DNA of 5,182 nucleotides. It comes from a virus. Taxonomy: Duplodnaviria; Heunggongvirae; Uroviricota; Caudoviricetes. Below are positions 3,295 to 5,005 of the stretch, piece by piece. The translations under genes were made by a program, and so were the position numbers. Numbering within the stretch: position 1 is the stretch's first letter; the number at the start of each line of letters is the position of its first letter. The stretch lies in IMG/VR virus record IMGVR_UViG_2534681941_000045; one strand, written 5' to 3'. The notes below the pieces were generated by a model. The model was given only the letters and a program-made list of their open reading frames with translations, ran no database searches and was not told the DNA's origin.

Positions 3295-3311
3295 TGAAAC
3301 AGGTGAGTTGA

Positions 3312-3346
3312 GTTCAAACTGTAGTACAATTCTCTCCAGTTTGAAC
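3312..3346. promoter_or_regulatory. Perfect 10-bp inverted repeat (gttcaaactg ... cagtttgaac) with a 15-nt spacer, between ren and emrE
   Basis: 3312-3321 gttcaaactg is the exact reverse complement of 3337-3346 cagtttgaac. The right arm ends 15 nt before the emrE ATG and abuts the emrE Shine-Dalgarno (aggaaa). No U-tract follows, so it does not look like an intrinsic terminator; a dimeric-regulator operator or an mRNA 5'-UTR hairpin are the alternatives. Confidence 0.4.
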
Positions 3347-3361
3347 AGGAAAGAATATGTT

Positions 3362-3694
3362 ATGAACCCTTATATTTATCTTGGTGGTGCAATACTTGCA
3401 GAGGTCATTGGTACAACCTTAATGAAGTTTTCAGAAGGTTTTACACGGTTATGGCCATCTGTTGGTACAATTATTTGTTATTGTGCATCATTCTGGTTAT
3501 TAGCTCAGACGCTGGCTTATATTCCTACAGGGATTGCTTATGCTATCTGGTCAGGAGTCGGTATTGTCCTGATTAGCTTACTATCATGGGGGTTTTTCGG
3601 CCAACGGCTGGACCTGCCAGCCGTTATAGGCATGATGTTGATTTGTGCCGGTGTGTTGGTTATTAATTTATTGTCACGAAGCACACCACATTAA
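3362..3694 (+). CDS. emrE: Small multidrug resistance (SMR) family efflux transporter EmrE
   Basis: 110-aa product MNPYIYLGGAILAEVIGTTLMKFSEGFTRLWPSVGTIICYCASFWLLAQTLAYIPTGIAYAIWSGVGIVLISLLSWGFFGQRLDLP...GMMLICAGVL.INLLSRSTPH matches E. coli EmrE nearly residue for residue, including the essential membrane-embedded Glu in AILAEVIG. Shine-Dalgarno aggaaa lies 8-10 nt upstream. The ORF-track start at 3308 is an in-frame upstream extension and is not used. Confidence 0.97.
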   Translation: MNPYIYLGGAILAEVIGTTLMKFSEGFTRLWPSVGTIICYCASFWLLAQTLAYIPTGIAYAIWSGVGIVLISLLSWGFFGQRLDLPAVIGMMLICAGVLVINLLSRSTPH

Positions 3695-3724
3695 AAATAA
3701 TTTCTTTTAAAAGACTGCAATATG

Positions 3725-3757
3725 GCGGTTCATATCTTTACATGGGCCGCTTTTGTT
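3725..3757 (+). terminator. Candidate Rho-independent terminator downstream of emrE
   Basis: Stem gcggttcat (3725-3733) pairs with atgggccgc (3742-3750), 9 bp allowing two G-U pairs, around an 8-nt loop, followed by ttttgtt (3751-3757). It lies 30 nt after the emrE stop. Confidence 0.45.
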
Positions 3758-3938
3758 AATGTTTTTAGTTTTTGTGTATTCTTTTGTGCCTTCAAGATTA
3801 TTGCGTAAGCAAATTGCAATACGATTATTGTTGTATATTCAAGATAGTGTGATCGTAATTGTCTTTTTAAATAAAAATTAAACAAAAATTATATCTCACC
3901 ACTAAGGTTTATAAAAGCATAAGTTAGCAGGTGTCACC

Positions 3939-4448
3939 ATGAAAAAAGCCATAGCATATATGCGATTTTCATCACCAGGTCAGATGTCTGGCGACTCATT
4001 AAACCGACAGAGAAGACTTATTGCTGAATGGTTAAAGGTAAATAGTGATTATTATCTTGATACCATAACATATGAAGATTTAGGATTAAGTGCATTCAAA
4101 GGAAAGCATGCACAATCAGGAGCTTTTTCGGAATTTTTAGATGCTATAGAGCATGGTTATATATTGCCAGGAACTACATTGTTAGTTGAAAGTCTGGACA
4201 GACTTTCAAGAGAAAAAGTCGGTGAAGCGATTGAACGTCTGAAATTGATTTTGAATCACGGTATTGATGTTATAACTCTTTGCGACAATACAGTCTATAA
4301 TATTGACTCTTTGAATGAGCCATATTCATTAATAAAAGCCATACTTATAGCACAAAGGGCAAATGAAGAAAGCGAGATAAAGTCAAGTCGGGTTAAATTA
4401 TCATGGAAGAAAAACGGCAGGATGCACTGGAATCAGGTACGATTATGA
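3939..4448 (+). CDS. ybcK: Large serine recombinase, N-terminal catalytic (resolvase-type) domain; 5' fragment of a frameshifted gene
   Basis: 169-aa ORF with the serine-recombinase active-site motif near the N-terminus (AYMRFSSPGQ, catalytic Ser in a Y-x-R-x-S context) and a resolvase-like core (LLVESLDRLSR). Shine-Dalgarno aggtg upstream. The frame terminates at 4446-4448, but the protein continues in the +2 frame (next feature). Symbol is from context (recombinase next to emrE in DLP12-type prophages). Confidence 0.85.
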   Translation: MKKAIAYMRFSSPGQMSGDSLNRQRRLIAEWLKVNSDYYLDTITYEDLGLSAFKGKHAQSGAFSEFLDAIEHGYILPGTTLLVESLDRLSREKVGEAIERLKLILNHGIDVITLCDNTVYNIDSLNEPYSLIKAILIAQRANEESEIKSSRVKLSWKKNGRMHWNQVRL

Positions 4449-4969
4449 CGGCGTCTTGTCCGAGATGGCTCTCCTTAGATGACAAAAGAACGGCTTTTGT
4501 TCCAGACCCCGACAGGGTGAAAACTATTGAGCTAATTTTTAAACTCAGGATGGAAAGGCGCTCATTGAATGCAATAGCCAAGTATTTAAATGATCATGCT
4601 GTAAAGAATTTCTCAGGAAAAGAAAGTGCATGGGGGCCTTCTGTAATTGAAAAATTATTAGCGAATAAAGCTCTGATAGGTATATGCGTACCTTCATATC
4701 GTGCAAGAGGGAAAGGGATAAGTGAAATCGCTGGCTATTATCCCAGAGTCATATCAGATGATTTGTTTTACGCTGTACAGGAAATTCGGTTGGCACCTTT
4801 TGGTATTAGCAATAGTAGCAAGAATCCTATGCTAATAAATCTACTTCGAACAGTTATGAAGTGTGAGGCTTGTGGTAATACCATGATTGTTCATGCGGTA
4901 TCTGGAAGTTTGCATGGCTATTATGTTTGTCCGATGAGAAGATTACATCGATGTGACAGGCATCAATAA
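4403..4969 (+). CDS. ybcK: Large serine recombinase, recombinase domain plus zinc-ribbon; frameshifted continuation of the previous fragment (the ATG at 4403 is probably not a real start)
   Basis: 188-aa ORF carrying recombinase-domain-like sequence and a Cys-rich zinc-ribbon-like motif (CEACGNTM...YYVCPMRRLHRCD), typical of large serine recombinases. It overlaps the upstream fragment by 46 nt in a different frame, with an A5 run at 4410-4414 inside the overlap. Confidence 0.8.
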   Translation: MEEKRQDALESGTIMTASCPRWLSLDDKRTAFVPDPDRVKTIELIFKLRMERRSLNAIAKYLNDHAVKNFSGKESAWGPSVIEKLLANKALIGICVPSYRARGKGISEIAGYYPRVISDDLFYAVQEIRLAPFGISNSSKNPMLINLLRTVMKCEACGNTMIVHAVSGSLHGYYVCPMRRLHRCDRHQ

Positions 4970-5005
4970 AGAGAGATTTGGTTGATTATAATATCATTAA
5001 TGAAT

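Follow-up and report, generated by a model that had tools for sequence, protein, structure and literature searches.

The emrE and ybcK genes of an Escherichia coli O157:H7 prophage are separable modules in a DLP12-type accessory region

Introduction

In the experiments of De Paepe et al. (PMC3945230), lambdoid phages gained DNA of the prophage DLP12, including DNA of the nin region, via homologous recombination. For the DLP12 genes considered here, two properties have been described in Escherichia coli K-12: the synthesis of YlcJ, detected by epitope tagging (PMC6001520), and a Rho-dependent terminator region upstream of ybcK, which curbs ybcK transcription (PMC4150792). The ybcK gene itself is only listed as one of 16 K-12 recombinase genes (PMC5426353), and our literature search found no functional study of ybcK as a recombinase. 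Here, we analyzed a stretch of 5,182 nucleotides (nt) of viral DNA (IMG/VR record IMGVR_UViG_2534681941_000045), referred to as the window, in which the efflux pump gene emrE is followed by ybcK, a large serine recombinase (LSR) gene.

A prediction made from the sequence alone (the original prediction) held that this AT-rich block is a nested cargo module. According to it, emrE and the recombinase gene form one integrative or invertible element, which is moved by the recombinase, was inserted downstream of ren, and may have its recombination site in the spacer between the two genes. We show that the region corresponds to the accessory region of the DLP12 type, which is known and already annotated in E. 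coli lambdoid phages, and that emrE and ybcK are separable modules. The block is probably a patchwork of independent morons, moved by homologous recombination, in a replaceable slot between ren and ylcH-ybcN.

Results

emrE occurs with and without ybcK

The window was identified as part of a lambdoid prophage of E. coli O157:H7 adjoining icd on the basis of its open reading frames (ORFs), its Pfam domains, and its megablast matches in complete E. coli genomes. The emrE product is a 110-amino-acid (aa) four-helix protein with the essential Glu14 in MNPYIYLGGAILAEVIG. It matched PF00893 (E = 2e-35) and the EmrE-specific NCBIfam model NF042984 (240 bits at a cut-off of 226), and thus belongs to the small multidrug resistance (SMR) pumps.

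Both emrE and ybcK were present in 1399 of 5426 complete E. coli genomes. In 2302 of the 5426, the best match was emrE alone, 90-95% identical. The lone copy was found at a non-prophage site, in the order fliE-emrE-ybcL-ybcM-IS200 tnpA...yedF (both loci inspected). Homology between the fliE locus and the prophage was limited to emrE, extended by 77 bp on its upstream and 8 bp on its downstream side (9086-9503 in L001), and resumed upstream of ybcL. Compared with the fliE arrangement, K-12 contains a 2083-bp insertion (ylcJ, ybcK, and ~300 bp) that starts 7 bp past the emrE stop codon. A further arrangement, ren-emrE-esterase without ylcJ-ybcK, was detected in four IMG/VR contigs (represented by L174). 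The emrE module ends ~8-20 bp past the stop codon, where three different right-hand partners are joined to it. Because emrE is found without ybcK at the fliE locus and beside the esterase gene in some prophages, the two are separable modules. The number of synonymous substitutions per site (dS) between the fliE-locus and prophage copies of emrE was 0.40, indicating an old split; the ratio of nonsynonymous to synonymous changes (dN/dS) was 0.01-0.02.

The only full plasmid matches were mis-filed chromosomes; other SMR genes were found on 3.2-kb plasmids, without ybcK. A hairpin upstream of emrE was no more stable than those of shuffled sequence.

The island between fliE and yedF (7002-9154 in L017/L018) is AT-rich, 2.1 kb long, and consists of emrE-ybcL-ybcM. 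It ends in a fragment of the right boundary of the prophage slot described below (ylcH'), followed by an IS200/IS605 transposase gene. In E. coli, emrE seems to be located more often in this island than anywhere else, and the island resembles a lambdoid prophage fragment left stranded there.

The block occupies a slot with fixed boundaries

The arrangement of the block was analyzed in 158 E. coli prophage contigs or loci from IMG/VR, some contigs being taken twice, once per query. The order was always ren, emrE, ylcJ, ybcK where ybcK was present. All 158 loci had the same relative orientation; no inverted module was detected, although an invertible segment would be expected in both orientations. 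In the sampled loci, the emrE-ybcK pair was confined to the slot between ren and ybcN of E. coli lambdoid phages. An LSR-driven cargo element should occur at different sites or in different hosts with matching empty sites, and this was not observed.

Besides the window, ren-emrE-ylcJ-ybcK was present in DLP12 of K-12 (at argU), in a ybhC/att-lambda prophage, and in 12 lambdoid phage isolates with their own tyrosine int/xis. The block was found in phages with three different tyrosine integrases and attachment sites. Other lambdoid phages carry something else in its place: in ~110 complete genomes, ren and ybcN were just ~830 bp apart, with unrelated small genes in between. For every cassette type, homology was lost and regained at the same two points. 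The left one is in the 3' end of ren, where phages with other cassettes lose homology past window position ~3263-3266. The right one lies beyond the window, ~90 bp upstream of ylcH, and is a conserved promoter-like sequence, TTGATT-17-CATAAT, followed by a hairpin. In L001, these elements are located at 11586-11660, ahead of ylcH-ybcN; the hairpin has a perfect 10-bp stem (GTCACCGGAG...CTCCGGTGAC), and both elements are found in all cassette variants. In intact relatives, the block extends ~1.7 kb beyond position 5005, which is the start of an insertion sequence (IS), IS1203, and not the end of the block. Presence, absence, or replacement at fixed boundaries in otherwise collinear phages is the behavior of a moron.

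At least four variants were distinguished to the right of ybcK. The L105 type, the commonest variant in E. coli (63 loci), contains a 107-aa ORF and an HNH-like gene. The K-12 type (34 loci) contains ybcL-ybcM, the type of phage 4A7 (locus L019; 22 loci) contains the esterase gene, and the O157 type (10 loci) corresponds to the L105 type minus ~230 bp. In L105, the 107-aa ORF is located at 8216-8539, and a 260-aa protein with CxxC...CxxC HNH-like motifs is encoded at 8714-9496; neither has an NCBIfam match.

The left boundary of the slot coincides with a composition break

The AT-richness of the block, noticed by eye in the original prediction, was borne out. The GC content was 0.417 in emrE, 0.291 in the spacer, and 0.374 in ybcK, compared with 0.530 in gene P and 0.502 in ren. 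The corresponding values at third codon positions (GC3) were 0.28-0.35 in the block and 0.52-0.57 outside (P and ren). A likelihood change-point search placed the best single break at 3262 (GC 0.472 to the left and 0.368 to the right; log-likelihood ratio 24.9) and the best two breaks at 1875 and 3255, separating segments with a GC content of 0.425, 0.535, and 0.369. No 1711-nt stretch as AT-rich as the block arose in 10,000 permutations of 50-nt chunks (p <= 1e-4). The break falls at the comparative mosaic boundary at 3263-3266, within the final 30 nt of ren, and the base composition of the block differs from that of the flanking phage genes, which is also a property of morons.

The prediction that int, xis, O, P, and ren have a typical enterobacterial composition holds for the C-terminal part of O, for P, and for ren. 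It does not hold for int (GC 0.434, GC3 0.383), xis (0.473), and the 5' part of O (0.39), all of which are low; the host flank has a GC content of 0.52.

YbcK relatives in other genera have no SMR neighbor

A survey of YbcK relatives with one genome per species yielded 80 loci. Relatives with 40-61% identity were found in Atlantibacter, Yersinia, Erwinia, Ewingella, Pantoea, Kluyvera, and Citrobacter. When the surroundings were searched by tblastn with EmrE, none of the 78 relatives outside E. coli had an SMR gene within 10 kb; only the E. coli loci did. Thus, in the data searched, the pair does not exist beyond E. coli lambdoid phages, and the pairs outside lambdoid prophages that the original prediction would lead one to expect were not found.

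The relatives were seen in three contexts. Some are located at the end of a prophage, after a tail-fibre assembly gene and beside host genes (ssrA/smpB in Atlantibacter, lepA in Erwinia; also in Ewingella and Yersinia), and this is the position of a prophage integrase. Others are located in the nin region of other lambdoid phages (L011, L012, L022, L103, and L037), where the neighbors include KGG, dinI, DUF1367, and ninG genes, a DNA methylase gene, and MazG-like and ParB-like/KilA-N/Q genes. Still others lie in DNA resembling plasmids or integrative and conjugative elements. The contexts are given without proportions, as a small marker-protein panel left about half of the YbcK-clade loci unclassified. 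A tRNA or tmRNA gene was found beside the YbcK relative only in Atlantibacter L007 (ssrA) and at none of 17 other loci. No conserved non-coding sequence up- or downstream of the ybcK homologues that would mark a shared attachment (att) site was detected.

At two of the nin-region loci, duplications surround the YbcK homologue. In L011, it is bracketed by a diverged duplicate of the 5' part of the DUF1367 gene (7623-7851 and 10609-10831; 229 bp, 82.5%). In L037, it is bracketed by a duplicate of gene P (9281-9657 and 12216-12592; 380 bp, 75%), and the displaced copy has decayed. The L011 phage, which is of the Atlantibacter type, also encodes a 648-aa SIR2_2-domain protein (3749-5695), a candidate defence gene in the very AT-rich accessory region between the replication genes and nin. 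In Citrobacter koseri (L015, 6145-9530), a YbcK relative is oriented head-to-head with a gene for a 555-aa protein that has a faint match to Shufflon_N (PilV-like), in a TraD/MobA context. A tyrosine recombinase is the usual enzyme of shufflons; the arrangement in L015 could be a different kind of switch.

Direct repeats surround ylcJ-ybcK in phage 4A7

LSR att sites are ~40-50 bp long and consist of imperfect dyads around a central dinucleotide. When the surroundings of the block in the K-12 and O157 alleles were searched for repeats, direct or inverted, only short AT-rich matches with 70-80% identity were returned, which look like chance. Nothing above chance that could serve as repeats or as a common core brackets emrE plus ybcK, and the flanking repeats expected for a mobile block are not found in this allele.

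In phage 4A7, a 2073-bp ylcJ-ybcK segment lies between imperfect direct repeats of ~38-45 bp, within which a 15-bp core (CATTAAAAATAATTT) is perfectly repeated. Shared cores of about this length occur in the att sites of some characterised LSRs. The second copy of the core scored 22/27, and the maximum among shuffled sequences was 20. The emrE-esterase contigs contain exactly one copy of this repeat, at the 3' end of emrE. A targeted search showed that a second copy is absent from the L105, K-12, and O157 types. The right joint of 4A7 cuts the 107-aa ORF, which is intact in the L105 type. This truncation suggests that the 4A7 arrangement arose secondarily, through the joining of an L105-type phage and an emrE-esterase phage.

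ybcK is conserved in intact phages and inactivated in the window

Intact YbcK (508 aa) has the domains of an LSR: an N-terminal catalytic domain, PF00239 (Resolvase, E = 5e-19), then PF07508 (Recombinase, 2e-14) and PF13408 (Zn_ribbon_recom, 8e-8), and after these a C-terminal extension. It matched PHROG 95, "integrase" (E = 7e-120). Residues R9, S11, Q15, R88, and R91 are invariant across 22 relatives, and Y7, R9, S11, Q15, and the SLDRLSRE motif are invariant or nearly so in the family alignment. Among E. coli alleles, dN/dS of ybcK was 0.07-0.16, indicating that intact copies are under purifying selection. As judged from this selection, YbcK presumably does something in intact phages. A comparison with solved structures gave no sequence match for YbcK at E <= 0.001, and the PADLOC defence models did not match YbcK, YlcJ, EmrE, YbcL, YbcM, or the esterase.

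In the window, ybcK is inactivated by IS1203, which is inserted at codon ~356 of 508, and additionally by two frameshifts, if these are real. The frameshifts are caused by the deletion of 1 nt after 4409, where A6 is shortened to A5, and of 1 nt after 4960, where CC is shortened to C. The first cuts the catalytic domain after codon ~157; the later domains are broken by the second and by IS1203. The locus of strain F7386 (L104) is identical to the window, including the IS insertion, except for the two deletions. Since both homopolymer deletions are absent from every related locus fetched, F7386 included, they may be sequencing or assembly errors. The terminal sequence, the annotation, and the junctions in L104, with a 4-bp target duplication (GAAT), identify the insertion as IS1203/IS629 of the IS3 family.

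For comparison, we used two O157:H7 loci with the prophage beside icd, L001 and L003. In L001, ybcK is intact (508 aa); in L003, IS1203 is inserted elsewhere in the gene. Thus, IS1203/IS629 struck ybcK independently at at least two positions in O157:H7 lineages (6922-8224 in L003 and 5006 in the window).

Most of the spacer is occupied by known features

The original prediction gave the coordinates and gene content of the block correctly, including the 244-bp spacer between emrE and ybcK (3695-3938). Its proposal that the spacer contains the recombination site fits only the first bases, where a recombination joint lies ~7-10 bp past the emrE stop codon. Most of the remainder is taken up by a terminator-like hairpin, the gene for YlcJ, and the Rho-dependent terminator region (Table 1).

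The prophage is a deletion remnant

As predicted, the prophage has its own tyrosine integrase (Table 1). Positions 28778-30286 of phage 4A7 correspond to positions 1-1509 of the window, and positions 37372-40883 correspond to 1509-5007. The ~7.1 kb lost in between reach from xis to O codon ~77 and comprise the early-left operon (exo/bet/gam, kil), cI, cro, cII, and the 5' end of O, which RefSeq flags as lacking its N-terminus. Because the early-left operon and the immunity region are gone, the prophage is a defective remnant that cannot be a functional phage.

Five origin iterons (TTACCNGAATCAGGTAA) are located within O at 1719-1835 with a spacing of 19-29 bp, and an A-rich stretch comes after them. 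The iterons explain why the GC content of O is low in its 5' part; they also gave rise to the sole, spurious match (E = 0.39) in an Rfam search of the whole window, which otherwise returned nothing.

Table 1. Features of the 5,182-nt window
Feature	Position	Strand	Basis or remark
Tyrosine integrase, lambda Int type	1..1143	-	PF09003 + PF00589; icd adjacent in L001 and L003
xis, excisionase	1133..1369	-	Annotated so in the identical loci L001 and L003
Gene O, truncated, with five origin iterons	1473..2297	+	PF04492; repeat family D1
Deletion joint	1509	.	~7.1 kb of phage 4A7 missing here
Gene P, replication	2294..2995	+	L001 annotation; GC 0.53
ren	2992..3294	+	Annotation; final ~30 nt already variable cassette
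Left slot boundary = GC change point	3255..3266	.	Homology breakpoints; change points 3262 and 3255
emrE, SMR efflux pump, intact, Glu14 present	3362..3694	+	PF00893; NF042984; ~420-bp self-contained module
CATTAAAAATAATTT, overlaps emrE stop codon	3689..3703	.	Right-hand partners of emrE diverge at or just after it; repeated downstream of ybcK only in 4A7-type phages
Terminator-like hairpin + T-run, downstream of emrE	3724..3751	+	Consensus scan only
ylcJ-like small ORF, 40 aa	3759..3881	+	PF23688, E = 1.7e-18
ybcK, LSR gene, here pseudogene	3939..5005	+	Alignment to intact alleles; domains; PHROG 95
IS1203/IS629 left end (TGAACCGCCCC...)	5006..5182	+	Transposase ORF from 5060; first 177 nt within the window

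Discussion

We propose that two modules were assembled in the slot. One would be emrE, ~420 bp in length. The other would be ylcJ with ybcK, an orphan LSR gene of the phage integrase family together with its leader. The block would spread among phages, and between phages and defective prophages, via homologous recombination in the conserved flanks, which would be ren on the left and the promoter-like sequence with its hairpin upstream of ylcH on the right. Its presence in phages with three integrases, together with the published experiments (PMC3945230), makes exchange via these flanks the simplest vehicle. YbcK would not be required for the spread, and prophage integration would be carried out by the prophage's own tyrosine integrase. 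In the lysogen, EmrE would provide proton-coupled efflux of cationic compounds.

Several observations weigh against this explanation. A consensus scan revealed no emrE promoter above background. Three to four cassette types have exactly identical slot boundaries, which could hint at site-specific exchange. The ybcK gene is conserved and recurs in the nin region across genera, and passenger status alone does not explain this. Finally, in 4A7-type phages a direct repeat, perfect over a 15-bp core, lies on either side of ylcJ-ybcK. Nevertheless, we consider the patchwork of morons probable.

It is extremely unlikely that emrE and ybcK form a single element moved by YbcK, as originally predicted. 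The block does differ in composition and has a sharp left edge, an LSR gene adjoins emrE although the prophage has a separate tyrosine integrase, and ybcK of E. coli is always located beside emrE. However, emrE is far more often found without ybcK, its module ends shortly past the stop codon with three different partners, and YbcK relatives outside E. coli have no SMR neighbor. The pair was never found beyond the slot in the sample and was never inverted, this allele has no flanking repeats above chance, and the spacer contains the YlcJ gene and a Rho-dependent terminator region. The distribution data among these largely refute the model. What remains of the nested module is foreign accessory DNA in a variable slot, as supported by its composition and boundaries; it is not one recombinase-driven cargo. 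Three outcomes had been named in advance as speaking against the prediction. Two of them, the confinement of the pair to this prophage type and the absence of flanking repeats, were observed; the third, a composition difference without significance, was not.

A narrower role of the recombinase is unlikely, but it deserves more consideration. In this explanation, only ylcJ-ybcK (~2.07 kb) is a past or present self-inserting LSR mini-element. Its target would be the 3' end of emrE (CATTAAAAATAATTT), so that emrE would be the landing site and not the cargo. The attB-like empty joint would then be the L174 sequence (CACACCACATTAAAAATAATTTCTTTTGAATCGAG), and the circular joint would be GGTCACGCCCC-CATTAAAAATAATTT-ATTTTTAAACG (as joined: GGTCACGCCCCCATTAAAAATAATTTATTTTTAAACG). 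The repeats around the 2073-bp segment in 4A7 with their single copy in L174, the score of the second copy above the shuffle maximum, the clean insertion in K-12 relative to the fliE arrangement, the constant linkage of ybcK to emrE in E. coli, and the similar core length of some LSR att sites are in line with it. The duplications of a neighboring gene around the ybcK homologues in L011 and L037 point in the same direction, albeit uncertainly. But the right-hand repeat is restricted to the 4A7 type and is missing even from the commonest type. The right joint through the 107-aa ORF is as expected if an L105-type phage and an emrE-esterase phage were joined at a CAC microhomology, by illegitimate or homologous recombination, and ordinary recombination between the repeats would yield the same "empty" product. 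In addition, the non-coding flanks of ybcK homologues are not conserved, and the segment was never found at any other site. We are equally doubtful about the broader form of this idea, in which ylcJ-ybcK is, or was until recently, an autonomous ~2-kb mini-element targeting the emrE 3' end and the nin-region YbcK recombinases of several genera, kept by purifying selection, are generally active, making novel joints beside them. If it were true, the YbcK family would add a site-specific component to phage mosaicism, or provide a second means of integration beside the tyrosine integrase.

Very unlikely, in our view, is an origin of the block as the leftover end of a second temperate phage, with a YbcK-like integrase and a moron, that merged into a lambdoid phage and then decayed. 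YbcK relatives with 50-59% identity do lie at prophage termini, after tail-fibre assembly genes and beside host genes or ssrA, and in Yersinia a moron-like autotransporter gene adjoins the YbcK relative. Yet in E. coli no other remnants of such a phage flank ybcK, and ybcK is under purifying selection rather than decaying. Moreover, the nin-region position recurs across genera with different neighbors, and emrE has an independent history.

Regarding the genes as such, we add little: both emrE and ybcK had been annotated in DLP12 before, and lambdoid prophages are expected to contain AT-rich accessory DNA. The analysis shows that EmrE, which serves as the model SMR pump, is encoded by a very small module that stands on its own and has at least three downstream partners, and that the origin of emrE is not linked to the adjacent recombinase. 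Since functional lambdoid phages carry emrE, the gene is phage-transmissible through ordinary phage recombination. A full-length serine integrase gene is conserved inside phages that use a tyrosine integrase.

The closest described system is DLP12 of K-12 (renD-emrE-ylcJ-ybcK-ybcL-ybcM-ylcH-ybcN). It has the same genes in the same order and slot, with 97% identity over ren-emrE-ylcJ-ybcK, and its ybcK differs from that of the window at 8 nt. Both regions are disrupted by an IS element, IS3 in renD of K-12 and IS1203 in ybcK of the window. In contrast to DLP12, which is located at argU, the prophage of the window is located at icd and has an e14-like/4A7-like integrase; the O157 type contains 254 bp of the L105-type cassette instead of ybcL-ybcM, and ybcK is broken in the window.

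The block also resembles the morons in the ren-nin slots of lambdoid phages, since it is replaceable, deviates in composition, and is dispensable, as collinear phages exist without it. Unusually for a moron, one of its passengers is a full-length recombinase under purifying selection. YbcK shares the three-domain architecture, the catalytic motif, and relatives at prophage termini with the LSR integrases of phages (phiC31, Bxb1, TP901-1, SPbeta SprA; PHROG 95), but in E. coli its gene is internal to a phage that integrates by a tyrosine integrase. Like Tn4451/TnpX, Tn5397/TndX, and SCCmec/Ccr, the block is compact and AT-rich and has a recombinase gene next to a resistance gene. Unlike these elements, the emrE-ybcK pair lacks independent mobility, multiple sites, and end repeats.

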